Positions 1,203-56,647 of a stretch of DNA of 64,000 nucleotides are shown here, one piece after another. The notes under the pieces were generated by a model. The model did no database searches. It was not told where the DNA came from and saw only the letters and a program-made list of their open reading frames with translations. Position 1 is the stretch's first letter. The number at the start of each line of letters is the position of its first letter. This stretch comes from Escherichia coli. Its GTDB lineage: Bacteria; Pseudomonadota; Gammaproteobacteria; Enterobacterales; Enterobacteriaceae. Made by a program: the position numbers and the translations under genes. The stretch lies in assembly GCF_013122565.1 (NCBI RefSeq), contig NZ_CP053258.1. One strand, 5' to 3'.

Positions 1203-2410
1203 TGGATATTTTTAATACCTCAATTTCTCGTAAAGGAACATATTGCACACAATGGGACTTTTGTGAAGACAGATTTGGTGTAAAAGATGTATTACCATTC
1301 TCTATTTCAGATATGGATCTTCCGATACCGGAAGCTATCATCAGAACATTAAAAAAACGTCTGGAACACCCGATTTTAGGGTACAGTCGTTGGCAGCATG
1401 ATGACTATCTGAATTCGATAGTCAATTGGTATCATCAACAATATAAAACAGAGATTCAACCAGAATGGATCACCTATAGCCCAAGCGTGATGTATTCAAT
1501 ATCTAAGGCAATAGAAATATTGACATTGAATGGAGATAATATTCTCATTTTCACGCCTGTTTATAACGCATTTTATGATGTGATTAAGCATAATGGTCGA
1601 AACATGCTAACAACCTCTTTGATGAAAGAAAATGGGAGAGGCTACGTTATCAACTGGCAAGACTTTGAGCTTAAAATTAAAAGCGCGAAGATGGTGTTAT
1701 TATGTAATCCTCATAACCCGACAGGAACGGTCTGGTCGGAAGACGATCTTCACAGAATCGCAGCATGCTGTGCAAGGCATAATATTTGGTTATGTTCAGA
1801 TGAAATACATAGTGATTTTGTTTTTAATCATAGTTTCACGTCAGCGCTAACAATAAAAGATGACAAAGTGGTGGTGTTTAATTCGATTTCGAAAACATTT
1901 AATGTTCCTGCGCTAACCGGATCATATATGATTTCAACTGACGATAATTTTAATCATAAGTTCAGAACGATATCGAGGTATCGCGATTTTGTAAACTCCC
2001 CATCAGTACTGAATGTAATTGCGACCATTGTTGCCTATAATGAATGTGAAGAATGGTTAAAGTCATTAAAGGTACATATTGCCTCTAACATTCAATTTAC
2101 CTTGCAGTATTTAAATGAAAATATTCCGGAATTGATCGTATGGCCAGCTGAGGGCTGCTATTTTTCGTGGGTTGATTGCTCGGCCCTTGGTTATCCCTTT
2201 GATAAATTTTACCGTCGATTAATTAACGAAGGGAGAGTAGGTATTATGGCGGGGCATGTTTATGGTACTGAAGGAGAGGGCTATCTGCGTCTTAATCTGG
2301 CCTGCAGTCGAGAAAAATTATATATGGGGCTTGCGCGCCTTGCGAGTGTAATTAAAAATATTAATCAGGAAAAAGAAAATGAACAATACGGATCTTATCC
2401 ATCTTATTAA
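1196..2410 (+). CDS. PLP-dependent C-S lyase / aminotransferase, MalY/PatB family
   Basis: 404 aa. Collinear with K-12 MalY from memory: CTQWD, LPFSISDMD, LLCNPHNPTG, SDEIH, FNVPALTG. Start overlaps the PTS stop. Confidence 0.85.
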   Translation: MLMDIFNTSISRKGTYCTQWDFCEDRFGVKDVLPFSISDMDLPIPEAIIRTLKKRLEHPILGYSRWQHDDYLNSIVNWYHQQYKTEIQPEWITYSPSVMYSISKAIEILTLNGDNILIFTPVYNAFYDVIKHNGRNMLTTSLMKENGRGYVINWQDFELKIKSAKMVLLCNPHNPTGTVWSEDDLHRIAACCARHNIWLCSDEIHSDFVFNHSFTSALTIKDDKVVVFNSISKTFNVPALTGSYMISTDDNFNHKFRTISRYRDFVNSPSVLNVIATIVAYNECEEWLKSLKVHIASNIQFTLQYLNENIPELIVWPAEGCYFSWVDCSALGYPFDKFYRRLINEGRVGIMAGHVYGTEGEGYLRLNLACSREKLYMGLARLASVIKNINQEKENEQYGSYPSY

Positions 2411-2975
2411 ACATTTTATGCGTAACGAACATAAAGCAGTAGAAGAGGTTATTGATTCCCCCCTTTCGGAAGTCGCGAATTTAATTAAAATATTACAATC
2501 TTGCCAGGGAAAAGTTGTTTTTATTGGTGTTGGGAAATCTGGCATTATTGCCAGAAAACTTGCTGCAACATTTGCCAGCACCGGAACTCCCTCGTTTTTT
2601 GTTCACGGTACGGAAGCGGTACACGGCGACCTTGGGATGGTGGCGAAAGACGATGTTGTTATTCTTATTTCAAACAGTGGTGAGACGGCGGAAATCCTGG
2701 CGACACTGCCTAGTTTGAAAAAAATGGGTAATTATTTGATCTCTTTTACCCGCAGTCATCACTCATCGCTTGCGATAAGTTGTGATTTATCTGTTGAAAT
2801 CCCCGTCAAAAGTGAGGCGGATAATTTAGGTTTAGCACCGTCATGCTCGTCTACTGTTGTTCTGGTTGTTGGTGATGCGGTGGCGCTTGCACTCTCTGAA
2901 TTGAAAAAATTTACTCGTGCTGATTTCGGCTTATATCATCCAGGAGGTGCACTCGGCATTAAAGCAAATTCATAA
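2379..2975 (+). CDS. Single-SIS-domain sugar-phosphate isomerase (arabinose-5-phosphate isomerase-like, no CBS domains)
   Basis: 198 aa. Matches the KdsD/GutQ N-terminal SIS domain: GVGKSG, ATFASTGTPSFFVH, HGDLGMV, ISNSGET, HPGGALG. Lacks the C-terminal CBS pair. Confidence 0.8.
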   Translation: MNNTDLIHLIKHFMRNEHKAVEEVIDSPLSEVANLIKILQSCQGKVVFIGVGKSGIIARKLAATFASTGTPSFFVHGTEAVHGDLGMVAKDDVVILISNSGETAEILATLPSLKKMGNYLISFTRSHHSSLAISCDLSVEIPVKSEADNLGLAPSCSSTVVLVVGDAVALALSELKKFTRADFGLYHPGGALGIKANS

Positions 2976-3037
2976 TTTCAAAGTATAAATACAGTAACCG
3001 GTCACGCCATCTTTTGGGGTGGCGTTCATTGAAGTGA

Positions 3038-3994
3038 GTGTCAGCTATGAAAAATGTTCTGGTCACCGTCCCCAGCTTTTCAGCACGCTGTGTTTCCGCC
3101 AGCAAGTTGCTAAGAGAGAATAATTTTAACCTTATTATTAAGAATAATGTGGAGCATCTGCTTAAATCAGAATCCACTGCATTACGAGAATCTATTTGCG
3201 CGGTCATCGCCGGAAAAGATTGTTACCAGGCGGACACGCTATCATTGCTGCCTGGTGTGAGAATAATATCGAGATTCGGGACGGGGATAGATAATATTGA
3301 TCTTCGTGCAGCACAACAATCCGGTATTGTAGTCAATAATGCGGTTGGGATTAATTCAAATGCTGTCGCGGAATTTATCATTGGACTTATCTTCGCGAGC
3401 ATGAGAAATATTCCTGGCAGCTATCATGCGATGCAAAATGGCTACTGGGGTGAGTCGCATGGCTATGAATTACAAGGCAAACGGATTGGCCTGGTTGGCT
3501 ACGGCAATATAGGTAAAACCCTGGCAAAAAGGTTATCCGGTTTTGATGTTGAGCTTTTAGCTTATGACAAACAACCCGATTATCAGGTTGCTGACAAAGT
3601 TGGAGTTCAGTTTGTATCAATTGAAGATATCTTTATGCAGTCGCATGTCATCATTGTTCTTTTGCCTTTTTCTCCTGAGCTGGAGAACTTCATTAGTCAT
3701 AAATATTTGTCGATGATGCGCAATGGTGCTCTAATCATCAATGCCGCAAGGGGAAAGTTGCTGGATGAGGGCGCTTTACTACAGGTGATTGAAGAACGAA
3801 ATGTGTTTGCGGCGCTGGATGTGTTTAGCTCTGAACCGTTGGCGCAATTTAGCCCACTGCTACATGCCAAAAATATCATTACAACGCCGCATATTGCGGC
3901 CGCCACCGTTGAGTCATACCAGCAAACCGGTACACACGTTGCCCAGTCGATAATTGATTACTTCGCAGGAAGGGAGATAAAAAACGTGTTGTGA
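3038..3994 (+). CDS. D-isomer-specific 2-hydroxyacid dehydrogenase, NAD-binding
   Basis: 318 aa. Rossmann GxGxxG (GLVGYGNIGKTLAKRL) and the TPHIAAAT catalytic-region motif. Track start is GTG at 3038; an ATG at 3047 is an alternative. Confidence 0.8.
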   Translation: MSAMKNVLVTVPSFSARCVSASKLLRENNFNLIIKNNVEHLLKSESTALRESICAVIAGKDCYQADTLSLLPGVRIISRFGTGIDNIDLRAAQQSGIVVNNAVGINSNAVAEFIIGLIFASMRNIPGSYHAMQNGYWGESHGYELQGKRIGLVGYGNIGKTLAKRLSGFDVELLAYDKQPDYQVADKVGVQFVSIEDIFMQSHVIIVLLPFSPELENFISHKYLSMMRNGALIINAARGKLLDEGALLQVIEERNVFAALDVFSSEPLAQFSPLLHAKNIITTPHIAAATVESYQQTGTHVAQSIIDYFAGREIKNVL

Positions 3995-4072: not shown

Positions 4073-4149
<77 letters not shown>

Positions 4150-5542: not shown

Positions 5543-5641
5543 TGCCGGATGCGGCGTGAACGCCTTATCCGGCCTACAAATCATGCAAATCCAAAATATT
5601 GCAGGAGTTATGTAGGCCTGATAAGCGTAGCGCATCAGGCA
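5543..5641. repeat. REP/BIME palindromic elements (two REP units)
   Basis: gccggatgcggcgtgaacgccttatccggcctaca and tgtaggcctgataagcgtagcgcatcaggca, typical enterobacterial REP consensus. Confidence 0.8.
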
Positions 5642-8634: not shown

Positions 8635-8840
8635 AAAAAAAAGCACCGCAATTAGGCGGTGCTACATTAATCACTATGGACAGACAGGGTAAATGTACAG
8701 GAAGTGAAAAAAGGTAGCTTTGCTACCATGGTCTGAATCGCAGACCAATTGCAAACACAACAACACAACATCACAACCGTAAGCCAAAAGTTCACCAGAA
8801 CACGCATTCCGATAAAACTTTTCGTTCCGGCTCAGGAAGT
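8635..8840 (-). ncRNA. gcvB: GcvB small regulatory RNA
   Basis: Reverse complement reads ACTTCCTGAGCCGGAACGAAAAGTTTTATCGGAATGCGTGTTCTGGTGAACTTTTGGCTTACGGTTGTGATGTTGTGTTGTTGTGTTTGC..., ending in the hairpin GCACCGCCTAATTGCGGTGC plus T8. Includes the GU-rich R1 region. Divergent from gcvA as in K-12. About 206 nt. Confidence 0.92.
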
Positions 8841-27011: not shown

Positions 27012-27377
27012 GTCGACAGGGAGTCAGACAACGAAGTGAACATCAGGATGATGACACTTCTGAAGGACACACCAGGATGGTGTTTCAGGGAAAGGCTTCT
27101 GGATGAAGCGAAGAGGATGACGCAGGACGCGTTAAAGGACACCTCCAGGATGGAGAATGAGAACCGGTCAGGATGATCCGGTGGGTCAGGAAGGCCAGGG
27201 ACACTTCAGGATGAAGTATCACATCGGGGTGGTGTGAGCAGGAAGCAATAGTTCAGGATGAACGATTGGCCGCAAGGCCAGAGGAAAAGTTGTCAAGGAT
27301 GAGCAGGGAGCAACAAAAGTAGCTGGAATGCTGCGAAACGAACCGGGAGCACTGTGAATACAGTGCTCCCTTTTTTT
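27012..27377 (+). ncRNA. csrB: CsrB sRNA (CsrA-sequestering)
   Basis: About 366 nt with roughly 18 GGA-containing motifs (caggatg, aaggaca, caggaag). Ends in hairpin gggagcactgtgaatacagtgctccc plus T7. Sits between syd and yqcC as in K-12. The 5' end is approximate, +/-5 nt. Confidence 0.92.
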
Positions 27378-27422
27378 ATTCCTGCTATCCTTCGCGGCAG
27401 TTTTTCTTATTGAGGTTGCTTT

Positions 27423-37884: not shown

Positions 37885-40119
37885 ATGGTTGCGGTAAGAA
37901 GTGCACATATCAATAAGGCTGGTGAATTTGATCCGGAAAAATGGATCGCAAGTCTGGGTATTACCAGCCAGAAGTCGTGTGAGTGCTTAGCCGAAACCTG
38001 GGCGTATTGTCTGCAACAGACGCAGGGGCATCCGGATGCCAGTCTGTTATTGTGGCGTGGTGTTGAGATGGTGGAGATCCTCTCGACATTAAGTATGGAC
38101 ATTGACACGCTGCGGGCGGCGCTGCTTTTCCCTCTGGCGGATGCCAACGTAGTCAGCGAAGATGTGCTGCGTGAGAGCGTCGGTAAGTCGGTCGTTAACC
38201 TTATTCACGGCGTGCGTGATATGGCGGCGATCCGCCAGCTGAAAGCGACGCACACTGATTCTGTTTCCTCCGAACAGGTCGATAACGTTCGCCGGATGTT
38301 ATTGGCGATGGTCGATGATTTTCGCTGCGTGGTCATCAAACTGGCGGAGCGTATTGCTCATCTGCGTGAAGTAAAAGATGCGCCGGAAGATGAACGCGTA
38401 CTGGCGGCAAAAGAGTGCACCAATATCTACGCGCCGTTGGCAAACCGTCTTGGGATTGGGCAACTGAAATGGGAGCTGGAAGATTACTGCTTCCGTTATC
38501 TCCACCCGACCGAATACAAACGCATCGCAAAACTGTTGCATGAACGCCGTCTCGACCGCGAACACTATATCGAAGAGTTTGTCGGTCATCTGCGCGCTGA
38601 GATGAAAGCTGAAGGCGTTAAAGCTGAAGTGTATGGTCGTCCGAAACACATCTACAGCATCTGGCGCAAAATGCAGAAAAAGAACCTCGCCTTCGATGAG
38701 CTGTTTGATGTGCGTGCGGTACGTATTGTCGCCGAGCGTTTACAGGATTGTTATGCCGCACTGGGGATAGTGCACACTCACTATCGCCACCTGCCGGATG
38801 AGTTTGACGATTATGTCGCTAACCCGAAACCAAACGGTTATCAGTCTATTCATACCGTGGTTCTGGGGCCGGGTGGAAAAACCGTTGAGATCCAAATCCG
38901 CACCAAACAGATGCATGAAGATGCAGAGTTGGGTGTTGCTGCGCACTGGAAATATAAAGAGGGCGCGGCAGCTGGCGGCGCACGTTCGGGACATGAAGAC
39001 CGGATTGCCTGGCTGCGTAAACTGATTGCGTGGCAGGAAGAGATGGCTGATTCCGGCGAAATGCTCGACGAAGTACGTAGTCAGGTCTTTGACGACCGGG
39101 TGTACGTCTTTACGCCGAAAGGTGATGTCGTTGATTTGCCTGCGGGATCAACGCCGCTGGACTTCGCTTACCACATCCACAGTGATGTCGGACACCGCTG
39201 CATCGGGGCAAAAATTGGCGGGCGCATTGTGCCGTTCACCTACCAGCTGCAGATGGGCGACCAGATTGAAATTATCACCCAGAAACAGCCGAACCCCAGC
39301 CGTGACTGGTTAAACCCAAACCTCGGTTACGTCACAACCAGCCGTGGGCGTTCGAAAATTCACGCCTGGTTCCGTAAACAGGACCGTGACAAAAACATTC
39401 TGGCTGGGCGGCAAATCCTTGACGACGAGCTGGAACATCTGGGGATCAGCCTGAAAGAAGCAGAAAAACATCTGCTGCCGCGTTACAACTTCAATGATGT
39501 CGACGAGTTGCTGGCGGCGATTGGTGGAGGGGATATCCGTCTCAATCAGATGGTAAACTTCCTGCAATCGCAATTTAATAAGCCGAGTGCCGAAGAGCAG
39601 GACGCCGCCGCGCTGAAGCAACTTCAGCAAAAAAGCTACACGCCGCAAAACCGCAGTAAAGATAACGGTCGTGTGGTGGTTGAAGGTGTCGGTAACCTGA
39701 TGCACCACATCGCGCGCTGCTGCCAGCCGATTCCTGGAGATGAGATTGTCGGCTTCATTACCCAGGGACGCGGTATTTCAGTACACCGCGCCGATTGCGA
39801 ACAACTGGCGGAACTGCGCTCCCATGCGCCAGAACGCATTGTTGACGCGGTATGGGGCGAGAGCTACTCCGCCGGATATTCGCTGGTGGTCCGCGTGGTG
39901 GCTAATGATCGTAGTGGGTTGTTACGTGATATCACGACCATTCTCGCCAATGAGAAAGTGAACGTGCTTGGCGTTGCCAGCCGTAGCGACACCAAACAGC
40001 AACTGGCGACCATCGACATGACCATTGAGATTTACAACCTGCAAGTGCTGGGTCGCGTGCTGGGTAAACTCAACCAGGTGCCGGATGTTATCGACGCGCG
40101 TCGGTTGCACGGGAGTTAG
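37885..40119 (+). CDS. relA: GTP pyrophosphokinase RelA ((p)ppGpp synthetase I)
   Basis: 744 aa. Confidence 0.95.
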   Translation: MVAVRSAHINKAGEFDPEKWIASLGITSQKSCECLAETWAYCLQQTQGHPDASLLLWRGVEMVEILSTLSMDIDTLRAALLFPLADANVVSEDVLRESVGKSVVNLIHGVRDMAAIRQLKATHTDSVSSEQVDNVRRMLLAMVDDFRCVVIKLAERIAHLREVKDAPEDERVLAAKECTNIYAPLANRLGIGQLKWELEDYCFRYLHPTEYKRIAKLLHERRLDREHYIEEFVGHLRAEMKAEGVKAEVYGRPKHIYSIWRKMQKKNLAFDELFDVRAVRIVAERLQDCYAALGIVHTHYRHLPDEFDDYVANPKPNGYQSIHTVVLGPGGKTVEIQIRTKQMHEDAELGVAAHWKYKEGAAAGGARSGHEDRIAWLRKLIAWQEEMADSGEMLDEVRSQVFDDRVYVFTPKGDVVDLPAGSTPLDFAYHIHSDVGHRCIGAKIGGRIVPFTYQLQMGDQIEIITQKQPNPSRDWLNPNLGYVTTSRGRSKIHAWFRKQDRDKNILAGRQILDDELEHLGISLKEAEKHLLPRYNFNDVDELLAAIGGGDIRLNQMVNFLQSQFNKPSAEEQDAAALKQLQQKSYTPQNRSKDNGRVVVEGVGNLMHHIARCCQPIPGDEIVGFITQGRGISVHRADCEQLAELRSHAPERIVDAVWGESYSAGYSLVVRVVANDRSGLLRDITTILANEKVNVLGVASRSDTKQQLATIDMTIEIYNLQVLGRVLGKLNQVPDVIDARRLHGS

Positions 40120-40128
40120 TCTTACATA

Positions 40129-40165
40129 GCTGGATATGGCGTCAGCCGTATCCAGCGATATCTTT
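40129..40165 (+). terminator. Hairpin downstream of relA
   Basis: gctggata-N12-tatccagc followed by a T-rich stretch. Weak terminator or processing structure. Confidence 0.4.
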
Positions 40166-40214
40166 TACTCGAAGGTATTACACCTGACAGATCCGCAATT
40201 TTCAGGACAATTCA

Positions 40215-41006
40215 ATGAATCAAATCGACCGTTTGCTCACCATCATGCAGCGTCTTCGCGACCCGGAAAACGGCTGCCCGTGGGATAAAGAGCAGACATT
40301 TGCAACCATTGCGCCTTACACCCTTGAAGAAACCTACGAAGTGCTGGACGCCATCGCCCGCGAAGACTTTGACGATCTGCGCGGTGAACTCGGCGATCTG
40401 CTGTTCCAGGTGGTGTTTTACGCACAAATGGCCCAGGAAGAAGGGCGCTTTGATTTTAATGATATTTGCGCCGCGATTAGCGATAAATTAGAGCGTCGCC
40501 ATCCGCATGTTTTTGCTGACAGTTCTGCCGGAAACAGCCGCGAAGTTCTCGCCCGTTGGGAGCAAATCAAAACCGAAGAGCGCGCGCAGAAAGCGCAGCA
40601 TTCGGCGCTGGACGATATTCCTCGTAGTTTACCAGCCTTAATGCGTGCGCAAAAAATCCAGAAACGTTGCGCCAACGTTGGCTTCGACTGGACGACGCTT
40701 GGCCCGGTGGTTGATAAAGTCTACGAAGAGATCGATGAGGTGATGTGCGAGGCACGGCAGGCTGTTATCGACCAGGCTAAACTGGAGGAGGAAATGGGGG
40801 ACCTGCTGTTTGCCACGGTCAATCTGGCTCGTCATTTAGGGACAAAAGCGGAAATCGCATTGCAAAAAGCGAACGAAAAATTCGAGCGTCGTTTTCGCGA
40901 AGTGGAGCGTATTGTTGCCGCGCGTGGACTGGAAATGACAGGTGTTGACCTCGAAACAATGGAAGAAGTCTGGCAACAGGTAAAACGGCAGGAAATTGAT
41001 CTCTAA
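40215..41006 (+). CDS. mazG: Nucleoside triphosphate pyrophosphohydrolase MazG
   Basis: 263 aa. Lies 95 bp after relA, with no mazEF between. Confidence 0.93.
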   Translation: MNQIDRLLTIMQRLRDPENGCPWDKEQTFATIAPYTLEETYEVLDAIAREDFDDLRGELGDLLFQVVFYAQMAQEEGRFDFNDICAAISDKLERRHPHVFADSSAGNSREVLARWEQIKTEERAQKAQHSALDDIPRSLPALMRAQKIQKRCANVGFDWTTLGPVVDKVYEEIDEVMCEARQAVIDQAKLEEEMGDLLFATVNLARHLGTKAEIALQKANEKFERRFREVERIVAARGLEMTGVDLETMEEVWQQVKRQEIDL

Positions 41007-45481: not shown

Positions 45482-46153
45482 ATGCAGTACCCGATTAACG
45501 AGATGTTCCAGACCCTGCAAGGTGAGGGTTACTTTACCGGCGTCCCCGCCATTTTTATTCGTTTACAGGGATGCCCGGTTGGCTGTGCCTGGTGCGACAC
45601 CAAACACACCTGGGAAAAGCTTGAGGATCGGGAAGTCTCCCTTTTCAGCATTCTGGCGAAGACCAAAGAGAGTGATAAGTGGGGGGCGGCGAGCAGTGAA
45701 GACTTGCTGGCTGTCATTGGTCGCCAGGGATATACCGCGCGGCATGTGGTGATTACGGGGGGTGAGCCTTGCATTCATGATTTGCTGCCACTGACTGACC
45801 TGCTCGAAAAGAACGGTTTTAGCTGCCAGATCGAAACCAGTGGTACTCATGAAGTACGCTGTACACCGAATACCTGGGTTACCGTATCGCCAAAGCTGAA
45901 CATGCGCGGCGGCTATGAAGTGTTGTCACAGGCACTGGAGCGAGCCAACGAAATCAAGCATCCAGTGGGACGCGTACGTGATATTGAAGCACTGGATGAA
46001 CTTTTGGCGACGCTGACCGATGATAAACCGCGAGTCATTGCACTGCAGCCGATTAGCCAAAAGGATGATGCCACACGTTTGTGCATTGAAACCTGCATTG
46101 CGCGTAATTGGCGTTTGTCGATGCAAACCCATAAATATTTAAATATTGCCTGA
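45482..46153 (+). CDS. queE: 7-carboxy-7-deazaguanine synthase QueE (radical SAM)
   Basis: 223 aa, radical-SAM Cys motif [10 protein letters not shown]. Confidence 0.95.
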
Positions 46154-46490
46154 TTAAACATTTATAAGTGTTATAAATGGGTGGAACCTGTAAAGAATTC
46201 CACTCATTTATATTGTTTGTCGCCTCTGAAAACCCCTCTTTTTTGCCCATCCTTGACTAATCATTATCATTCTCTACAAATTCTGTGGCGTTAATTTTTC
46301 GCTGGAGTGAAAATTATTGCGGTAAAGTTTGGTAGATTTTAGTTTGAATAGAGTTATTTTAAATATTTATCTTTTTAATCAATGGATTAAGTGCTCTTTA
46401 ACATAATGGATGTGTTGTTTGTGTGATCCTGTAAAGTTGTTAGATTGTGACTGGCTTAAAAAATCATTAATTAATAATAGGTTATGTTTA
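46154..46490 (+). promoter_or_regulatory. AT-rich CRISPR leader for the mini-array
   Basis: About 340 bp of AT-rich sequence immediately 5' of the first repeat. The distal repeat is degenerate, so this is the leader side. Confidence 0.55.
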
Positions 46491-46702
46491 GAGTTCCCCG
46501 CGCCAGCGGGGATAAACCGGCGATTATAGCGGACTTTCAAGAGAACAGTCTGAGTTCCCCGCGCCAGCGGGGATAAACCGTGGAAAATCACCGACAATAT
46601 TCGACATGGAGAGAGTTCCCCGCGCCAGCGAGGATAAACCGTTATCGGTCATCAACTATAGCGCGTATTTACTAAGTTCCCCGTTCCAACACGAATAATC
46701 CG
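46491..46702 (+). CRISPR. Type I-E CRISPR mini-array (CRISPR2-like): 3 intact repeats, 1 degenerate terminal repeat, 3 spacers of 32 bp
   Basis: Repeats gagttccccgcgccagcggggataaaccg at 46491, 46552 and 46613 (third has one mismatch). Degenerate repeat 46674..46702. Phase confirmed by the antisense artefact ORF 46379..46597. Confidence 0.95.
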
Positions 46703-46767
46703 ATAATATCGACGATACCAACCTAATATTATCAAATGTTAAAGGTTCTAATTTAAGAGGAAATTTA

Positions 46768-47031
46768 ATGTCTACGTTAATGGAAAAAGAATCTCTCCTG
46801 AATGGCGTGAGTCAAAATATTGCATTTTTATCAAATGTATCTGAAATGGTTTACAACTCTCAGAATGAAGAGTTGCAGTATGAAATATATGAGCTGGTGA
46901 GTTATAAAGATTATCTATACTCAACAGACCATGAACTTGTTGATTTTCAAGAGGGAGTATTACGATTTCAACAAATTAGAACAAAATACAGGCAAGAGCT
47001 AAAAGAACTCGGTTATCCTGTAGGTAATTAA
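46768..47031 (+). CDS. Hypothetical protein (87 aa, acidic, AT-rich codon usage)
   Basis: Intact ORF with SD aagagg 9 nt upstream. No homolog I recognise. Occupies the position where K-12 has ygcE..ygcN. Confidence 0.5.
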   Translation: MSTLMEKESLLNGVSQNIAFLSNVSEMVYNSQNEELQYEIYELVSYKDYLYSTDHELVDFQEGVLRFQQIRTKYRQELKELGYPVGN

Positions 47032-47393
47032 GAAATATTGTCTTGATGGTGGGGAAACGTAATTTTTTATATTTTAAATATTAGATTAAAACAATAAATT
47101 AATATCATACTTTTATTTTATTCTCGAAAATGCCTAATTTCATTAAATACGTTGTCCTGTAAATGTAAACCGGGCATTTTTCCGCCCGGTCTCCCTCGAT
47201 TACGCTTCTGAGCAGGTCTCGAGCGAATTCACACTCTCCCGTTCAACTTGCATCACCAGTTGGTTAAATTCAGTCAAACTCTCGCTCATAATAATAATGT
47301 CGCAGTCGTCTTCCATGTCATGCCCCAGATATCCAGAACACAACACCCTAACATAGCGTTACTTAAGGGAAATTGACCGCCGACACACTCTTA

Positions 47394-47759
47394 TCATTCG
47401 CCGCGATAGATACAACCTGCGGTGCAGGTTTCTTTCACCATCACTGCACTTAATAGCGGCACAACGGGTTTAACCTGATCCCAAATCCATTTTGCTAAAA
47501 CTTCGCTGGTTGGGTTTTCCAGACCTGGAATATCATTGAGATAATGGTGATCGAGGCGCTCATAAGTTGGCTTAAACGCCGCTTTCAGTTCAGCGAAATC
47601 GATAATCCAGCCCGTATGCGGATCGACTTCCCCGGTAATTTCCAGTCGCACCATAAAGGAATGCCCGTGCAGGCGACCACATTTATGTCCTTCCGGGACG
47701 TGTGGTAAGCGGTGAGCGGCTTCGAAGGTGAAATCTTTAAATAACGTGGTGGACATCAT
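47394..47759 (-). CDS. queD: 6-carboxy-5,6,7,8-tetrahydropterin synthase QueD
   Basis: 121 aa from [20 protein letters not shown]. The track ORF starts 28 codons upstream at a TTG. Confidence 0.93.
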
Positions 47760-48074: not shown

Positions 48075-49874
48075 ATGACGACACAGGTCCCACCTTCCGC
48101 GTTGCTTCCGTTGAACCCGGAGCAACTGGCACGCCTTCAGGCGGCCACGACCGATTTAACTCCCACCCAGCTTGCCTGGGTTTCTGGCTATTTCTGGGGC
48201 GTGCTCAATCAGCAGCCTGCTGCGCTTGCAGCGACGCCAGCGCCAGCCGCAGAAATGCCGGGTATAACTATTATCTCCGCCTCGCAAACTGGCAATGCGC
48301 GCCGGGTTGCTGAAGCATTACGCGATGATTTATTGACGGCAAAACTGAACGTTAAGCTGGTGAACGCGGGCGACTATAAATTCAAACAAATCGCCAGCGA
48401 AAAACTGCTCATCGTAGTGACGTCAACGCAAGGGGAAGGGGAACCGCCGGAAGAAGCCGTCGCGCTGCATAAGTTCCTGTTCTCCAAAAAAGCGCCAAAG
48501 CTGGAAAACACCGCGTTTGCCGTGTTTAGCCTCGGCGATAGCTCTTATGAATTTTTCTGCCAGTCCGGGAAAGATTTCGACAGCAAGCTGGCGGAACTGG
48601 GCGGTGAACGCCTGCTCGACCGTGTCGACGCCGACGTTGAATACCAGGCTGCTGCCAGCGAGTGGCGCGCCCGCGTGGTTGATGCGCTTAAATCGCGTGC
48701 GCCTGTCGCGGCACCTTCGCAATCCGTCTCTACTGGCGCGGTAAATGAAATCCACGCCAGCCCGTACAGCAAAGACGCGCCGCTGGTGGCGAGCCTCTCT
48801 GTTAACCAGAAAATTACCGGGCGTAACTCTGAAAAAGACGTTCGCCATATCGAAATTGACTTAGGTGACTCGGGCCTGCGTTACCAGCCGGGTGACGCGC
48901 TGGGCGTCTGGTATCAGAACGATCCGGCACTGGTGAAAGAACTTGTCGAACTGCTGTGGCTGAAAGGCGATGAACCTGTCACCGTCGAGGGCAAAACGTT
49001 GCCTCTGAACGAAGCGCTACAGTGGCACTTCGAACTGACCGTCAACACCGCCAACATTGTTGAGAATTACGCCACGCTTACCCGCAGTGAAACACTGCTG
49101 CCGCTGGTGGGCGATAAAGCGAAGTTACAGCATTACGCCGCGACCACGCCGATTGTCGACATGGTGCGTTTCTCTCCGGCGCAACTGGATGCCGAAGCGC
49201 TGATTAATCTGCTGCGTCCGCTGACCCCGCGCCTGTATTCCATCGCCTCCTCGCAGGCGGAAGTCGAGAACGAAGTACACGTCACCGTTGGTGTGGTGCG
49301 TTACGACGTGGAAGGCCGCGCCCGTGCCGGTGGTGCCTCCAGCTTCCTCGCGGATCGTGTGGAAGAAGAGGGCGAAGTCCGCGTATTTATCGAACATAAC
49401 GATAACTTCCGTTTGCCTGCTAACCCGGAAACCCCGGTGATTATGATTGGCCCCGGTACCGGCATCGCGCCGTTCCGTGCCTTTATGCAGCAACGCGCCG
49501 CCGACGAAGCGCCGGGTAAAAACTGGCTGTTCTTTGGCAACCCGCACTTTACGGAAGATTTCCTCTACCAGGTGGAGTGGCAGCGCTACGTCAAAGAGGG
49601 CGTGCTGACGCGTATCGATCTTGCCTGGTCGCGCGACCAAAAAGAAAAAGTTTATGTACAAGACAAACTGCGCGAACAGGGCGCGGAGCTGTGGCGCTGG
49701 ATCAATGACGGTGCCCACATTTATGTCTGCGGCGACGCTAATCGCATGGCGAAAGACGTTGAGCAGGCACTTCTGGAAGTGATTGCCGAATTTGGTGGCA
49801 TGGACACCGAAGCGGCGGATGAATTTTTAAGTGAGCTGCGCGTAGAGCGCCGTTATCAGCGAGATGTCTACTAA
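48075..49874 (+). CDS. cysJ: Sulfite reductase [NADPH] flavoprotein alpha subunit
   Basis: 599 aa. Confidence 0.97.
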
Positions 49875-51586
49875 TGAGCAAAAAACATCCAGGGCCTTTA
49901 GTGGTCGAAGGAAAACTGACAGACGCCGAGCGCATGAAGCTTGAAAGCAACTACCTGCGCGGCACCATTGCGGAAGATTTAAACGACGGTCTGACCGGCG
50001 GCTTTAAGGGCGACAACTTCCTGCTGATCCGCTTCCACGGCATGTATCAGCAGGATGACCGCGACATCCGCGCCGAACGTGCTGAACAGAAGCTGGAGCC
50101 GCGCCACGCGATGCTGCTTCGCTGTCGTCTGCCGGGTGGGGTGATTACCACTAAACAGTGGCAGGCGATCGACAAATTTGCCGGTGAAAACACCATCTAT
50201 GGCAGCATTCGCCTGACCAACCGCCAGACGTTTCAGTTCCACGGCATTCTGAAAAAGAACGTCAAACCGGTGCACCAGATGCTGCACTCGGTCGGTCTTG
50301 ATGCGCTGGCGACCGCTAACGACATGAACCGTAACGTACTCTGCACCTCGAACCCTTACGAGTCGCAGCTGCACGCGGAAGCATATGAATGGGCGAAGAA
50401 AATCTCTGAACATCTGCTGCCGCGTACTCGCGCGTATGCGGAGATCTGGCTCGATCAGGAAAAAGTCGCCACCACTGATGAAGAGCCGATCCTTGGTCAG
50501 ACCTACCTGCCGCGTAAGTTCAAAACCACGGTAGTGATCCCGCCGCAGAACGATATCGATCTGCACGCCAACGACATGAACTTCGTGGCGATCGCCGAAA
50601 ACGGCAAGCTGGTGGGCTTTAACCTGCTGGTGGGCGGTGGGCTTTCTATCGAACACGGCAACAAGAAAACCTACGCCCGCACGGCGAGTGAGTTTGGCTA
50701 TCTGCCGCTAGAACATACGCTGGCGGTGGCGGAAGCCGTCGTGACAACTCAGCGTGACTGGGGTAACCGAACCGATCGTAAAAATGCCAAAACCAAATAC
50801 ACGCTGGAGCGCGTGGGGGTTGAGACGTTTAAAGCGGAAGTGGAGCGTCGCGCGGGGATCAAATTTGAACCGATCCGTCCGTATGAGTTCACCGGACGCG
50901 GCGATCGTATTGGCTGGGTTAAGGGCATTGATGATAACTGGCACCTGACGCTGTTTATCGAAAATGGTCGCATCCTTGATTATCCGGGGCGTCCGCTGAA
51001 AACTGGCCTGCTGGAGATCGCGAAGATCCACAAAGGTGATTTCCGCATTACGGCGAACCAGAATTTGATCATCGCCGGTGTGCCGGAAAGTGAGAAAGCG
51101 AAGATCGAGAAGATCGCCAAAGAGAGCGGGTTAATGAATGCCGTCACGCCGCAGCGTGAAAACTCAATGGCCTGCGTGTCATTCCCGACTTGCCCGCTGG
51201 CGATGGCGGAAGCAGAGCGTTTCCTGCCGTCTTTTATCGACAACATCGACAATTTAATGGCGAAACATGGTGTCAGCGATGAGCATATCGTGATGCGTGT
51301 AACAGGCTGCCCGAACGGTTGTGGTCGCGCGATGCTGGCGGAAGTGGGCCTGGTGGGTAAAGCGCCGGGTCGCTACAACCTGCATCTTGGCGGCAACCGC
51401 ATTGGGACACGTATCCCACGGATGTATAAAGAAAACATCACCGAGCCGGAAATCCTGGCGTCGCTTGATGAACTGATAGGGCGCTGGGCGAAAGAGCGCG
51501 AAGCGGGTGAAGGCTTCGGCGACTTTACGGTGCGTGCGGGCATCATTCGCCCGGTGCTCGATCCGGCGCGCGATTTGTGGGATTAA
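49874..51586 (+). CDS. cysI: Sulfite reductase [NADPH] hemoprotein beta subunit
   Basis: 570 aa. Confidence 0.97.
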
Positions 51587-51601
51587 CCATCAGCCCGGTC
51601 T

Positions 51602-51639
51602 TGTAGGCCTGATAAGACGCGTGAGCGTCGCATCAGGCA
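51602..51639. repeat. REP element between cysI and cysH
   Basis: tgtaggcctgataagacgcgtgagcgtcgcatcaggca. Confidence 0.7.
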
Positions 51640-51659
51640 AGGCAAACAGTGAGGAATCT

Positions 51660-52394
51660 ATGTCCAAACTCGATCTAAACGCCCTGAACGAACTGCCGAA
51701 GGTAGATCGCATTCTGGCGCTGGCGGAAACTAACGCCCAACTGGAAAAACTGGATGCTGAAGGCCGCGTTGCCTGGGCGCTGGATAATCTGCCCGGTGAA
51801 TATGTACTTTCTTCCAGCTTTGGTATTCAGGCGGCGGTGAGCCTGCATCTGGTGAATCAGATTCGGCCGGATATTCCAGTGATCCTCACCGATACCGGTT
51901 ATCTGTTCCCGGAAACCTACCGCTTTATTGACGAGTTAACGGACAAACTCAAGCTCAACCTGAAAGTGTACCGTGCTACCGAAAGCGCCGCCTGGCAGGA
52001 AGCACGCTACGGCAAACTGTGGGAGCAGGGCGTTGAAGGCATTGAAAAGTACAATGACATCAACAAAGTCGAACCGATGAACCGGGCGCTGAAAGAACTG
52101 AATGCGCAAACGTGGTTTGCTGGCCTGCGCCGTGAACAATCCGGCAGCCGCGCCAATTTACCGGTGCTGGCAATTCAGCGTGGCGTATTTAAAGTACTGC
52201 CGATTATCGATTGGGATAACCGAACGATATATCAGTATCTGCAAAAGCATGGCCTGAAATATCACCCATTATGGGACGAAGGATATTTATCGGTCGGTGA
52301 TACCCATACAACCCGTAAATGGGAACCCGGCATGGCGGAAGAAGAAACACGTTTCTTTGGTTTAAAAAGGGAGTGTGGGTTACACGAAGGGTAA
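51660..52394 (+). CDS. cysH: Phosphoadenosine phosphosulfate (PAPS) reductase
   Basis: 244 aa from [17 protein letters not shown]. The track ORF begins 51 codons upstream, inside the REP. Confidence 0.95.
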
Positions 52395-52658
52395 ATATTG
52401 CCGGATAAATTAAACGCCTCTGTCAGAAATGATGGGGGCGTTTTTATTTTGCGAGCAGCATTCCTGATTTTAAACGTGAACGCCGCTGGAAGAATTATCA
52501 GGTATAGAATGGCGTCGGGTGCTTGAGGCTGTCTGGCGTTAAGCATTCGCGAGGTTCCAGATGGACAAAAGCCCCAGGCGATATTTCTATCAACCTGAGG
52601 CTTACGTTCGAACCCAAACAATTCGAATGTTAGTCTCTTCTTTGCAGGGAGGCAAGAC

Positions 52659-52811
52659 ATGCTGACAAAATATGCCCTTGTGGCAATCATCGTACTGTGT
52701 TGTACAGTACTGGGATTCACGCTGATGGTAGGCGACTCGTTGTGTGAGTTGAGTATCAGAGAACGTGGTATGGAGTTTAAGGCAGTTCTCGCTTACGAAT
52801 CGAAGAAGTAG
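52659..52811 (+). CDS. Hok/Gef-family type I toxin (50 aa; below ORF-track cutoff)
   Basis: Translates to [50 protein letters not shown]. One TM helix and a conserved C-terminal SLCE...AYES.K block as in plasmid R1 Hok (from memory). SD agggagg 7 nt upstream. An overlapping upstream 34-codon ORF (52561..52665) ends 7 nt into hok, like a mok reading frame. Confidence 0.8.
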
Positions 52812-52814
52812 CCA

Positions 52815-52876
52815 CCACGCGGGGGTAAAACCCCGCGTACTGAATTGTGATGGTTTGGTCTCCTGCACCCTTTTTT
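52815..52876 (+). terminator. Structured 3' region and terminator of the hok transcript
   Basis: Hairpin acgcgggg-gtaaaa-ccccgcgt, then a T6 run at 52871..52876. Confidence 0.45.
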
Positions 52877-52879
52877 AAT

Positions 52880-53048
52880 TTATATTATTTATGTGAGTAT
52901 TATGCCTATGTTTATTATTTATATATATTACGGATGAAAATCATTTAATTATTCACAATGTAAATATTTTATTGAAAGATATATGTCACAGATAATTTTT
53001 AATATGTGCGTAAATATCCTTTAAGTTTTACTGAAGGATAAAAATATT
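52880..53048 (+). promoter_or_regulatory. AT-rich cas3 promoter region
   Basis: About 170 bp of very AT-rich sequence directly upstream of the cas3 start, typical of a nucleoid-protein-silenced cas promoter. Promoter elements not individually assigned. Confidence 0.4.
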
Positions 53049-54392
53049 GTGACTTTCTTTGATTTCTGGGGAAAAACCCGACGTGGCGAGAAAGAAGGGG
53101 GCGACGGCTATCACCTTCTTTGCTGGCATTCGCTGGATGTGGCCGCGATGGGCTATTTAATGGTTAAAAGAAATTGCTTCGGGCTGGCTGACTATTTTCG
53201 TCAATTAGGGATTTCTGACAAGGAACAGGCAGCTCAATTTTTCGCCTGGTTGCTGTGCTGGCACGATATTGGAAAATTTGCCCGCTCTTTTCAACAACTT
53301 TACCTGCCCCCTGAATTCAAGATTCAGGAAGGTGCCAGAAAAAATTACGAAAAAATCTCTCATTCAACGCTGGGCTACTGGTTGTGGAATCATTATTTAA
53401 GTGAATGTCAGGAGTTACTTCCTTCATCTTCGCTCTCTCCGCGCAAACTTAGGCGAGTGATAGAAATGTGGATGCCCGTGACGACAGGGCATCATGGTCG
53501 GCCCCCTGATCGTATGGATGAATTGGATAATTTTCTGCCTGAAGACAAAGCTGCAGCACGAGATTTTCTCCTTGAAATCAAACCACTGTTTCCGCTCATA
53601 GAGATCCCCGCATTCTGGGATGATGATGAGGGCATTGAACTTATAAAACACCTTTCCTGGTATATCTCTGCAACCGTCGTGCTCGCAGACTGGACGGGTT
53701 CGTCAACGCGATTTTTTCCACGCGTCGCACACCCAATGGATATTAAAGGTTACTGGCAGAAAACTTTAGTTCAGGCTCAAAATGCCTTAACCGTCTTTCC
53801 TCTAAAAGCAAAAGTCGCGCCTTTCACCGGAATTAATACGCTGTTTCCTTTTATTGAGAATCCGACACCGTTACAGCAAAAGGTGCTGGATCTGGATATC
53901 AGCCAGCCAGGGCCACAGTTATTTATTCTGGAAGATGTGACTGGCGCAGGTAAAACGGAAGCGGCGCTTATCCTGGCGCACAGGTTGATGGCTGCGGGTA
54001 AAGCGCAGGGTTTGTTTTTTGGCCTGCCAACAATGGCAACGGCCAATGCCATGTATGATCGGCTCGTCAAAACCTGGCTTTCTTTCTATTCGCCAGAATC
54101 TCGCCCCAGCCTGGTGCTGGCACACAGTGCCCGCACATTAATGGACCGCTTTAATGAATCACTCTGGTCCGGTGATTTAATCGGGTCAGAAGAACCGGAT
54201 GAACAAGCTTTCAGCCAGGGTTGTGCGGCCTGGTTTGCCGACAGTAACAAGAAGGCGTTGCTGGCTGAAATTGGCGTCGGCACCCTGGATCAGGCGATGA
54301 TGGCAGTGATGCCGTTTAAACATAATAATCTGCGGCTTCTGGGGCTGAGTAACAAAATCGTGTTCCCCGCGCCAGCGGGGATAAACCGATGA
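53049..54392 (+). pseudogene. cas3: Truncated cas3 (type I-E; HD nuclease domain and start of helicase domain only), fused to the CRISPR array
   Basis: 447-aa ORF with a GTG start. HD motif WHDIGKF and Walker A TGAGKTEAA. Collinear with the N-terminal half of K-12 Cas3 (888 aa, from memory). The frame runs through CRISPR repeat 1 (...NKIV|FPAPAGINR) and stops in spacer 1. Confidence 0.88.
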
Positions 54393-56647
54393 ATATTTGC
54401 GAATATTCGGCAGAAAGCGGGTGTTCCCCGCGCCAGCGGGGATAAACCGAGGTTGCGGCACAAATTGAGGTTGTCGCAAATGTGTTCCCCGCGCCAGCGG
54501 GGATAAACCGCCGACGCAGCAGCGGCAGCAGCGGCAGCAGCGGTGTTCCCCGCGCCAGCGGGGATAAACCGTGGATCAGTGCCGCGTTCTCTCTCCGTGT
54601 AATGTGTTCCCCGCGCCAGCGGGGATAAACCGATCGAGACGGGTACGCGTAAAGCCGAGCTGGCGTGTTCCCCGCGCCAGCGGGGATAAACCGCGATCGG
54701 TTAATTCTTCTACCTGCCTTTGCAGGTGTTCCCCGCGCCAGCGGGGATAAACCGCCCGCAATGCATTCGGGCAGTTCCTTGCCGGGGTGTTCCCCGCGCC
54801 AGCGGGGATAAACCGGAGATTGAGCCAGACGCCCGCCAGGTGTTACTGTGTTCCCCGCGCCAGCGGGGATAAACCGGAAGTAACACACCCAACCCAGGTT
54901 GCGCCAGAGTGTTCCCCGCGCCAGCGGGGATAAACCGCCTGTTTGAGCAGGCGCGAATGAACCGGACCAGTGTTCCCCGCGCCAGCGGGGATAAACCGTC
55001 AGGTAAGCCAGTGTTAGGGGCAATATAGCAGTGTTCCCCGCGCCAGCGGGGATAAACCGTCATCGGCTCGTTATTTGTAGCCAGCACTACGGTGTTCCCC
55101 GCGCCAGCGGGGATAAACCGCTTTATCAGATGGTAAAGGTGAATCAATATGAGTGTTCCCCGCGCCAGCGGGGATAAACCGATACCCCAGCGTTTCGTTA
55201 TATGACGGAAGATGTGTTCCCCGCGCCAGCGGGGATAAACCGTGCAACCAGGACGGCAGGACGCATCGCCAGATGTGTTCCCCGCGCCAGCGGGGATAAA
55301 CCGCACGTTATTATCCGATATTCACCGATAAGCGTGTGTTCCCCGCGCCAGCGGGGATAAACCGTCTGGGCGTAAACAGTCGGATAAATCGCGGGTGTGT
55401 TCCCCGCGCCAGCGGGGATAAACCGGCGGCGTGTGGGGTAACAATCAGGGAGAGAAAGTGTTCCCCGCGCCAGCGGGGATAAACCGGATAAATACAGTAT
55501 ATTCCCGCGCTCTGCTGGCGTGTTCCCCGCGCCAGCGGGGATAAACCGTAGATTTTGTCCGGCTCAGGTGCGCCGATGGTGTGTTCCCCGCGCCAGCGGG
55601 GATAAACCGATCGAGTACAACAAAAAATATACTGAGTGAGTGTGTTCCCCGCGCCAGCGGGGATAAACCGCTGTTTGCTCCTGCTGCTCATTTAGTGATT
55701 TAGTGTTCCCCGCGCCAGCGGGGATAAACCGCCTGTTCTTTTTTAGTCAACTTAACCATGCTCGTGTTCCCCGCGCCAGCGGGGATAAACCGTCTTTTTC
55801 GAGACTTGCAGCAACGCTCTGAAAGTGTTCCCCGCGCCAGCGGGGATAAACCGATCGAGTAGTTTTGAGGGTTGGTGAATTCAGGGTGTTCCCCGCGCCA
55901 GCGGGGATAAACCGCTTAATAAATGGACTTAAGCGCCCAGTATTGGGTGTTCCCCGCGCCAGCGGGGATAAACCGGGGAGGGCGAGCCGCCGTAGGTGCG
56001 GTGAGGGGTGTTCCCCGCGCCAGCGGGGATAAACCGACGCAGAAACTGGTTGAAATAGTTTACGGTGAGTGTTCCCCGCGCCAGCGGGGATAAACCGGCA
56101 GTAAATTATTTGACCTCGTTGATAATCCCGTGTTCCCCGCGCCAGCGGGGATAAACCGGTGGCGGTGTGATTGTGGGACTTATTGCCATCGTGTTCCCCG
56201 CGCCAGCGGGGATAAACCGGGCCTTTTCAGCAGATTAACCGCCGCGATTGCGTGTTCCCCGCGCCAGCGGGGATAAACCGAGAGATTTATATTCTTTCAA
56301 ACCGGATTATATCGTGTTCCCCGCGCCAGCGGGGATAAACCGCTTCAAGAATTTTTAAACGCTGGCTTCAAAATGTGTTCCCCGCGCCAGCGGGGATAAA
56401 CCGTCCCACGCGTGCCAGATGGCGCGTTTGATGGCGTGTTCCCCGCGCCAGCGGGGATAAACCGATGATAACGGCAAAGGGTACGCTACGTACAACGTGT
56501 TCCCCGCGCCAGCGGGGTTAAACTGTGATCCAGTGAGTACCGATCCGGGAACAACCGGTGTTCCTCGCATCAGCGGGGATAAACCGGGTGCACTGGATGC
56601 GATGATGGATATCACTTGGCGTTCCCCCGCCCCTGCGGTAGAACTCC
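54360..56647 (+). CRISPR. Type I-E CRISPR array: 37 repeat-spacer units plus a highly degenerate terminal repeat; no leader, no adjacent cas operon
   Basis: 29-bp repeat gtgttccccgcgccagcggggataaaccg with period 61. Spacers are 32 bp except one of 33 bp (55487..55519). Repeat phase verified against the antisense artefact ORFs ([10 protein letters not shown] / VYPRWRGEH / GLSPLARGT). Degenerate repeats at 56497, 56558 and 56619 mark the leader-distal end, next to iap. Confidence 0.97.

Follow-up and report, generated by a model that had tools for sequence, protein, structure and literature searches.

The CRISPR-II locus (CRISPR2.3 array and leader) of an Escherichia coli type I-E system, probably orphaned by a deletion from mid-cas3 to the first CRISPR-I repeat

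INTRODUCTION

[quoted passage not shown] The array promoters sit in the leaders adjoining CRISPR2.1 and CRISPR2.3; the former leader is found only where cas genes are present, and leader 2.3 is similar in all strains, cas-less ones included (PMC3903273). In K-12, the CRISPR-2 array is transcribed in vivo in an H-NS-dependent manner, with transcription probably beginning some 95 nt upstream of its first repeat (PMC10011333). In the K-12 CRISPR-I leader, Cas1-Cas2 contacts positions -1 to -4 as well as an anchoring site, mapped at -50 to -53 (PMC5224486), and IHF lies in between, at -9 to -35 (PMC5224486, PMC10011333).

Both the CRISPR-II locus and its leader are known already, including in cas-less strains. 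Here we analyze a small array in a 64-kb window (the whole stretch of DNA that was analyzed, 64,000 nt), which includes, to our knowledge, the sole chromosomal site known for I-E cas genes in E. coli. We read the feature as the CRISPR-II locus, that is, the CRISPR2.3 array with its leader, of an E. coli type I-E system that was orphaned by a deletion reaching from the middle of cas3 to the first CRISPR-I repeat, and we put the probability of this reading at about 0.93.

RESULTS

Chromosomal position of the array

The flanking genes relA, mazG, pyrG, eno, ygcG, and queE show 98.5% identity to E. coli chromosomes, and only one of the 5,426 complete genomes fails to match the flanks at 95 to 99%, so that the window can be assigned to E. 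coli in the broad sense, Shigella included. An origin outside the species, suggested by an identity of about 91% in a first search, was rejected, since that value was caused by differences in the array and the flanks are those of E. coli. The queE product is 97.8% identical to that of K-12, and queE is annotated in the homologous regions of E. coli genomes. As in other CRISPR-II loci, queE adjoins the feature, and the side facing queE carries an AT-rich leader with homology to leader 2.3 (Table 1). The leader-distal flank is not ygcE: the array is followed by an 87-aa open reading frame (ORF), queD, cysJ, cysI, cysH, hok/sok, a 447-aa ORF, the large array, iap, cysD, and cysN. Neither the ygcE-ygcN block nor CRISPR2.2 is present, an arrangement that occurs in only 7 of the 5,426 complete genomes. 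This difference in the distal flank is a structural variant and leaves the identity of the array unaffected.

Table 1. Features of the CRISPR-II locus and of the truncated CRISPR-I locus, in positions of the window
Feature	Positions	Strand	Remarks
queE (ygcF)	45482-46153	+	223-aa ORF, Radical_SAM Pfam match
CRISPR-II (CRISPR2.3) leader	46154-46490	+	337 bp, directly after queE
Upstream leader motif GTTG[T]TAGATTGT, putative integrase anchoring region	46436-46448	+	G to T at 46440
IHF-region equivalent, predicted	46458-46484	+	-35 to -9 in K-12 numbering, by position
Leader-repeat junction, 2 bp short	46489-46492	+	TTTA/GAG versus TTTAGA/GAG or TTTAGA/GTG elsewhere
Repeat 1	46491-46519	+	perfect GAG-type type I-E repeat
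Spacer 1, GCGATTATAGCGGACTTTCAAGAGAACAGTCT	46520-46551	+	newest
Repeat 2	46552-46580	+	perfect
Spacer 2, TGGAAAATCACCGACAATATTCGACATGGAGA	46581-46612	+	HK97-like lambdoid phage source
Repeat 3	46613-46641	+	G to A at 46631, 3' half of stem
Spacer 3, TTATCGGTCATCAACTATAGCGCGTATTTACT	46642-46673	+	oldest, "anchor" spacer
Degenerate terminal repeat	46674-46702	+	8 of 29 positions off consensus
cas3 remnant, E1 variant, HD domain and helicase start	53049-54359	+	context
CRISPR-I (CRISPR2.1) array	54360-56586	+	37 GTG-type repeats, 36 spacers, without leader

Repeats and spacing

A first-pass annotation of the window had described three good repeats, one of them carrying a point mutation, followed by a degenerate terminal repeat, and this description was borne out. 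Four repeats of 29 nt occupy positions 46491 to 46702 of the plus strand, with start-to-start distances of exactly 61 nt (61, 61, and 61). Repeats 1 and 2 are perfect copies of GAGTTCCCCGCGCCAGCGGGGATAAACCG, repeat 3 differs from them by a single change, and repeat 4, AAGTTCCCCGTTCCAACACGAATAATCCG, is degenerate. The 29-nt repeat fits G(A/T)GTTCCCCGCGCCAGCGGGGATAAACCG, the sequence of the E. coli "CRISPR2" repeat family, and is identical to the K-12 CRISPR-I repeat. With up to three mismatches allowed, it has 39 matches in the 64-kb window, all on the plus strand and all within the two arrays, and it has none in 100 shuffles of the sequence. The three spacers, which are all different and 32 nt each, lie exactly where the annotation had placed them, and their length and the 61-nt period agree with the 32 to 33 nt and 61 to 62 nt of type I-E arrays. 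This is a true type I-E array, the second in the window. Its repeat reads in the crRNA sense on the plus strand, the degenerate repeat stands at the far end, and a full-length K-12-like leader is present, which together place the leader on the queE side.

The RNA of repeats 1 and 2 is predicted to fold into a 7-bp stem with a 4-nt loop (-15.1 kcal/mol, z = -3.6), a stem-loop that would be typical of a Cas6e substrate. In the repeat 3 RNA, the G-to-A change removes one pair and weakens the predicted hairpin to -8.2 kcal/mol, and the terminal repeat gives no hairpin at all (-0.8 kcal/mol, z = -0.3). A scan of the whole window with Rfam at gathering thresholds returned no CRISPR repeat family, its only hits being CsrB, GcvB, sok, a tRNA, and ES036.

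Within the window, CRISPR-II is uniformly of the GAG type and CRISPR-I uniformly of the GTG type. The first three bases of the repeat had been proposed to distinguish the two arrays as variants of one repeat family; this is correct for the arrays compared here but is not specific to the locus, since K-12 shows the opposite arrangement, with a GAG-type CRISPR-I that keeps an old GTG unit at its far end and a GTG-type CRISPR-II that ends in a GAG unit. New repeats are copied from the leader-proximal repeat, and an array hence turns uniform for whichever variant stands there. GAG or GTG is a mark of the array lineage and not of the locus.

The leader and its junction with the first repeat

Downstream of queE the annotation had noted an AT-rich leader of roughly 340 bp, in agreement with the 337 bp listed in Table 1 and with a GC content of 29.7%, versus 50.3% in the whole window. 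The leader aligns over its full length with the K-12 CRISPR-II leader (320 of 339 aligned positions identical, 94%) and, like it, extends to the first repeat, and a homologous leader (coverage of at least 80%) was found in 4,551 of the 5,426 complete E. coli genomes. Its homology to the K-12 leader suggests that it has promoter activity. A scan of positions 46100 to 47450 for consensus sigma-70 promoters and terminators gave nothing above shuffles and no convincing plus-strand site in the proximal leader.

The leader had further been called intact, which holds for its full-length homology to the K-12 leader but not for two of its details, a GA missing at the junction and a G-to-T substitution at position 46440. 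In the window, GCA_052983875.1, and GCA_018578885.1, the junction reads GGTTATGTTTA followed directly by the repeat start GAGTTCCCC, versus GGTTATGTTTAGA followed by G(A/T)GTTCCCC in K-12, OkiPb01716, WEC, and SC418. In the alignments, the short junction corresponds to the loss of one GA from a GAGA run. With it, the bases at leader positions -1 to -4 are changed, and the IHF and anchoring sites lie 2 bp nearer to the repeat. A 90-nt BLAST query spanning the short junction, which is an indirect test because BLAST cannot target one exact junction, gave no unsplit match in complete genomes, the top matches being either in two pieces or with 2 extra bases. A gapped pattern for the leader-repeat junction had 0 matches when run against one genome per species; our guess is that the E. 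coli representative genome has no leader of this kind.

The substitution at 46440 lies farther upstream. The motif GTTGGTRGRTTGT is shared by leader 2.3 and the CRISPR-I leaders of K-12 and of the E1 type, in each case at about -57 to -45, and the motif GTTGGTAGATTGT, which contains position 46440, occurs at equal distance in both CRISPR-I leader types. Judged by position and sequence similarity, this stretch of leader 2.3 would correspond to the anchoring region. Among the leaders aligned, T at position 46440 is peculiar to the window and GCA_052983875.1 (L007); the leaders of GCA_018578885.1 (L008), K-12, L001, L002, and L006 have G there. The IHF-equivalent stretch, AAAAAATCATTAATTAATAATAGGTTA, is identical to that of the K-12 leader 2.3, and its position, relative to the mapping done in the CRISPR-I leader, suggests that it would bind IHF. 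The IHF consensus WATCAANNNNTTR has no site with at least 8 of its 9 specified positions in the last 70 nt of four leaders, not even in that of K-12 CRISPR-I, where IHF binding is established. By position, both leader lesions would fall on Cas1-Cas2 contact sites, with the IHF-equivalent stretch unchanged.

Sources of the spacers

When the three spacers were searched by BLAST, as the annotation had proposed, a source emerged for spacer 2 and none for spacers 1 and 3. At 31 of 32 bases, spacer 2 matches one small gene in several phages: gp60 of HK97 and its equivalent in HK544, HK446, CUS-3, mEp506, a Salmonella phage, and an Stx2c phage. Matches at 31/32 also occur at more than 130 places on E. 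coli chromosomes, the one inspected (UTI89) lying within a lambdoid prophage, and the spacer has no second copy within the window. In both HK97 and the UTI89 prophage, ATG stands directly upstream of the protospacer. ATG is an accepted I-E PAM, and the AWG PAM (AAG or ATG) contributes its G as the last base of the repeat. Through spacer 2, the array contains a spacer that derives from a mobile element and whose protospacer is flanked by a PAM. The sole mismatch with the HK97 and UTI89 protospacers is T versus C at spacer position 1, in the Cascade seed, where a mismatch would weaken interference even with Cas proteins present. Spacer 1 had no match in the 5,426 E. coli genomes, in phage or plasmid collections, or in IMG/VR; spacer 3 had none in phages, plasmids, or IMG/VR and no near-exact match outside its own locus in the 5,426 E. 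coli genomes.

History of the array

The spacer content was compared across E. coli genomes, a second check that the annotation had called for, and this separated a common leader-distal end from lineage-specific spacers 1 and 2. Spacer 3 is identical in 7 of the 5,426 complete genomes, always at the CRISPR-II locus, and spacer 3, the G-to-A repeat, the degenerate repeat, and the sequence beyond it are common to 7 complete genomes that have other spacers at the leader end. The G-to-A mutation is also present in OkiPb01716, WEC, L007, L008, L009, and L010, and its presence in several related genomes indicates that it is ancestral. Relatives were sought by exact look-up of the neighboring 87-aa protein, which returned four contigs. 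In GCA_052983875.1, leader and array are identical to those of the window, spacer 1 included, and the part covered in SRR11451224 is the same as the window, including the fusion of cas3 to the repeat. GCA_018578885.1 and SRR11451197 agree with the window at the anchor end, except for one base in spacer 3, and have other spacers above it; the contig of GCA_018578885.1 extends to the leader, so that four differing spacers above the anchor are visible. Spacers 1 and 2 are confined to two near-identical assemblies. From these comparisons, the array is polarized as usual, with old, common spacers distal to the leader and young, lineage-specific ones proximal to it.

Loss of the cas genes

The 447-aa ORF that precedes the large array is the N-terminal half of Cas3 (Pfam Cas3_HD, 6e-33; PADLOC Cas3e, 2.6e-99) and is, by tblastn, 97% identical to residues 8 to 453 of the 900-aa E1 Cas3. 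Queries from the E1 locus of strain 4588 and the E2 locus of K-12 gave no tblastn match in the window for CasA to CasE, Cas1, or Cas2. The Cas3 fragment was the only match, as expected from the annotation, which had seen no Cas1 or Cas2, and the window thus lacks a complete type I-E CRISPR-Cas system (cas3, casA-E, cas1, and cas2). As far as the 64-kb window shows, both arrays are orphaned, and the cas genes are probably absent from the rest of the genome as well, although a plasmid or a second locus might carry them. The statement that the array cannot be extended is valid for the window, which has neither cas1 nor cas2, but is too broad beyond it.

The cas3 sequence ends at position 54359, and the first GTG repeat begins at the next base, with no gap. 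Since the cas3 fragment abuts the first CRISPR2.1 repeat, one deletion took the rest of cas3, Cascade, cas1-cas2, and the CRISPR2.1 leader. This fusion agrees with the earlier observation that the large array has no leader and the small one has kept its own, and it is exactly the pattern described for cas-less strains: the CRISPR2.1 leader is gone with the cas genes and leader 2.3 is kept.

Where deletions in cas3 end was examined separately, by comparing genomes with a truncated cas3 and numbering the ends from the cas3 start of strain 4588. Five independent deletion types were observed, with left ends at nt 915 (GCA_052983875.1 and GCA_018578885.1), 1196 (OSUCMP42NDM and MFDS1016424), 1353 (the window and SRR11451224), 1569 (STEC384), and 2046 (OkiPb01716 and 88-3493). 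The left ends differ, and the right end is always the first base of a GTGTTCCCC repeat, with an overlap of 0 to 1 nt. If ends were random, the probability of five such exact ends arising by chance within a 61-nt unit would be about 1e-9. Three aligned deletions that end inside cas1 or cas2 have 2 to 6 nt of microhomology, and two more truncated forms are known from the BLAST table alone, with cas7e or cas1 annotated under the match.

Two origins of the cas3-repeat fusions were considered and rejected. Microhomology-mediated deletion is at odds with the overlap of only 0 to 1 nt. Recombination between a self-derived spacer and its protospacer would place an AWG PAM before the 32 nt upstream of the junction; the trinucleotides found there at the five repeat junctions are ATA, TGG, TCT, CGT, and ATA, so that none of the five types has an AWG at the expected place. 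The 5' end of the repeat on the top strand is where Cas1-Cas2 joins the incoming 3'-OH (PMC10011333, PMC5224486). It is plausible that the integrase linked a 3' end of the chromosome, located in cas3, to the boundary of the repeat, which would have deleted its own operon. A non-exhaustive full-text literature search found no description of an integrase-type cas3-repeat deletion.

DISCUSSION

The history that we propose for this locus begins with Cas1-Cas2, which would have inserted spacers at the leader end and duplicated the leader-proximal GAG repeat each time. Such insertion would explain why the repeats are uniform and the period is 61 nt, why the far end keeps the common spacer 3 and the degenerate last repeat, and why spacers 1 and 2, at the leader end, are lineage-specific. 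Spacer 2 would have been captured from an HK97-like lambdoid phage, beside an ATG PAM. A deletion from the middle of cas3 to the first CRISPR-I repeat would then have removed an E1-type cas operon. Weak, H-NS-sensitive transcription is probably still driven from the leader, as it is in K-12, but without Cas6e and Cascade the transcript would be neither processed nor used, and without Cas1-Cas2 the array would not grow. Its present state would be that of an inert, slowly decaying immune memory.

Instead of decaying, the array might still be transcribed and be maintained for use once a compatible cas-E module is regained through horizontal transfer or supplied in trans. The leader, conserved over its full length with an unchanged IHF-equivalent stretch, and the perfect repeats 1 and 2 are what one would expect in that case, as is the in vivo transcription of the K-12 CRISPR-2 array (PMC10011333); moreover, E. 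coli has been reported to swap cas-E modules without displacing CRISPR-II, whose leader 2.3 functions with both variants (PMC3903273). We nevertheless consider such maintenance unlikely, given that both Cas1-Cas2 contact sites are changed (by the 2-bp loss at the junction and by the G-to-T substitution at 46440), that the hairpin of repeat 3 is weakened, that the only spacer with an identified target is mismatched at seed position 1 in the HK97 and UTI89 protospacers, and that the array bears no sign of selection. Far less probable is an array directed against cas genes, whose spacers would target the cognate cas operon, would have caused its loss, and would now block its re-entry. Orphan I-F arrays of E. 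coli with spacers matching I-F cas genes provide a precedent (Almendros et al. 2016, summarized in PMC8616872), and a cas operon has indeed been deleted here, yet none of the 39 spacers matches the E1 (strain 4588) or E2 (K-12) cas locus or the rest of the window (blastn-short, matches of at least 16 nt counted), and spacers 1 and 3 lack any near-exact match outside their own locus in the 5,426 E. coli genomes, which makes this explanation very improbable.

That the feature is no CRISPR at all, but a chance repetition or another repetitive element such as a REP/BIME-type intergenic repeat, could be argued from its few units. This idea was rejected, and its probability is negligible, in view of the exact 61-nt period of identical 29-nt units with the canonical E. 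coli I-E repeat, the absence of matches at up to three mismatches from all 100 shuffles, the homologous leader and position, and the phage-derived spacer with its PAM. None of the data speak against the identification as the CRISPR-II locus, which is the reading that we retain.

The short junction may still have supported spacer acquisition. It occurs in two sister lineages, the window with GCA_052983875.1 and, separately, GCA_018578885.1, whose leader-end spacers differ entirely above the same anchor spacer, which suggests that it was probably still able to receive spacers; a possible alternative is differential loss from a longer ancestral array. If acquisition did proceed, a natural I-E integrase would tolerate a 2-bp change in the leader "ruler," and on regaining a cas-E module the orphan array could be extended and used again, a reading that we consider less likely than not.

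The array itself adds an allele to a locus already catalogued throughout E. coli in work on CRISPR typing and evolution. Other orphan I-E arrays that keep the CRISPR-II leader are on record, and this one is an ordinary leftover of an immune system. Spacers 1 to 3 together with the G-to-A repeat form a lineage marker common to GCA_052983875.1 and SRR11451224. The shortened junction and the substitution in the putative anchoring site offer natural variants for testing how Cas1-Cas2 and IHF measure the leader. More interesting than the array would be the cas3-to-repeat fusions, which, across genomes, point to a site-specific loss of the cas operon.

Compared with the CRISPR-II locus of K-12, the array studied here has the same position directly after queE, the same orientation, a leader that is 94% identical, 29-nt repeats, 32-nt spacers, and a degenerate last repeat. 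It differs in having three spacers, none of which is common to the six of K-12, in its GAG repeats, where those of K-12 are mostly GTG, and in a junction that is 2 bp shorter, along with the G-to-T change at 46440. K-12 moreover has a complete cas-E2 operon, whereas the window has none, and it is flanked by ygcE, which is missing here, as is any CRISPR2.2 remnant. E. coli B/BL21 derivatives are also cas-less with orphan I-E arrays and are used as hosts for acquisition. The orphan I-F CRISPR4 arrays (Almendros et al. 2016) are likewise small, cas-less arrays with a leader that have been kept in many lineages, but they belong to another subtype with another repeat and contain anti-cas spacers, of which none were found here. 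Published cas deletions have mainly been ascribed to recombination between IS elements; here, by contrast, no IS takes part, and cas3 abuts the first base of the repeat. In its overall outcome, the locus nonetheless resembles the orphan I-E arrays of cas-less E. coli (PMC3903273), in which, too, the CRISPR2.1 leader was lost together with the cas genes and the CRISPR2.3 leader was kept.

Deletions joining cas3 to a repeat of the CRISPR2.1 array

In the window and the comparison loci, we found five independent deletions that had removed the 3' part of cas3 together with the Cascade genes, cas1-cas2 and the CRISPR2.1 leader. On the left, each of them started at a different nucleotide of cas3 (see the table), and the right end was exactly base 1 of a repeat in all five. 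None of the five cas3-repeat junctions showed microhomology (0- to 1-nt overlap), and an AWG PAM, sought 33 to 35 nt upstream of each, was absent. In contrast, the three inspected deletions with ends inside cas1 or cas2 all displayed 2 to 6 nt of microhomology. This difference, together with the exact ends at repeat base 1 and the lack of the PAM, suggests that the cas3-repeat deletions reflect a site-specific event at the 5' boundary of the repeat, possibly catalyzed by Cas1-Cas2.

Coordinates of features in the window and of cas3-repeat junctions in the comparison loci (cas3 nucleotides numbered from the cas3 start of strain 4588)
Feature	Locus	Position	Remarks
cas3 remnant joined to first CRISPR2.1 repeat	window	53049-54359	junction 54359/54360; cas3 nt 1353
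cas3-repeat junction	L011 (GCA_052983875.1), L012 (GCA_018578885.1)	17154/17155	cas3 nt 915
cas3-repeat junction	L019 (OSUCMP42NDM), L020 (MFDS1016424)	2788/2789	cas3 nt 1196
cas3-repeat junction	L017 (STEC384)	3161/3162	cas3 nt 1569
cas3-repeat junction	L001 (OkiPb01716)	21011/21012	cas3 nt 2046
cas3-repeat junction	L018 (88-3493)	3638/3639	cas3 nt 2046
CRISPR2.1 array	window	54360-56586	37 repeats, 36 spacers
CRISPR2.1 spacer 3	window	54511-54542	
Segment compared with GCA_052983875.1	window	48075-54359	
hok/sok-type toxin-antitoxin module	window	52517-52811	between cysH and cas3 remnant
sok RNA	window	52517-52674	Rfam, 113 bits
Hok/Gef ORF	window	52659-52811	50 codons
AT-rich stretch around 87-aa ORF	window	46703-47393	35% GC
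87-aa ORF	window	46768-47031	+ strand; between CRISPR-II array and queD
relA	window	37885-40119	
relA-mazG gap	window	40120-40214	95 bp
mazG	window	40215-41006	
CsrB	window	27021-27380	Rfam
GcvB	window	8635-8840	Rfam
ES036 sRNA	window	5577-5619	Rfam
tRNA	window	4076-4149	Rfam

Within the large CRISPR2.1 array, spacer 3 is a low-complexity GCAGCAGCGGCAGCAGCGG run, spacer 29, GCAGTAAATTATTTGACCTCGTTGATAATCCC, is also present in the array of strain G4/9, and the degenerate repeats are the final two.

Mosaic relatedness and neighboring genes

The window and GCA_052983875.1 were 100% identical in eno, queE, the CRISPR-II array, the spacer between the 87-aa ORF and queD, queD, hok/sok and iap, and 99.8% identical in ygcG, but identity dropped to 97.4 to 98.5% in cysJ, cysI, cysH and the cas3 remnant. 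GCA_052983875.1 also differs from the window in its cas3-repeat junction and in its CRISPR2.1 array, which has 4 repeats. This pattern points to recombination within cysJIH-cas3 between strains that are nearly identical elsewhere.

The 87-aa ORF beside the CRISPR-II array occupies the place of the K-12 ygcE-ygcN block (~11 kb), an arrangement found in only 7 of 5,426 complete E. coli genomes, and its named homologues are confined to E. coli and E. fergusonii. Searches against Pfam and PADLOC gave no match. Residues 1 to 79 matched positions 1 to 79 of phrog_25145 (E = 9e-20), a phage family without assigned function; since this profile has 308 positions, the ORF may be a truncated remnant.

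The other RNA genes located by an Rfam scan of the window were all ordinary. No mazEF toxin-antitoxin pair lies between relA and mazG in the window, nor in GCA_052983875.1, whereas OkiPb01716, WEC and SC418 carry the pair there and GCA_018578885.1 has just a mazE-like gene at that position. As for the hok/sok module, such modules were reported to be linked to E1-type or cas-less CRISPR-I arrangements (PMC3903273), and its location next to the cas3 remnant fits this link.
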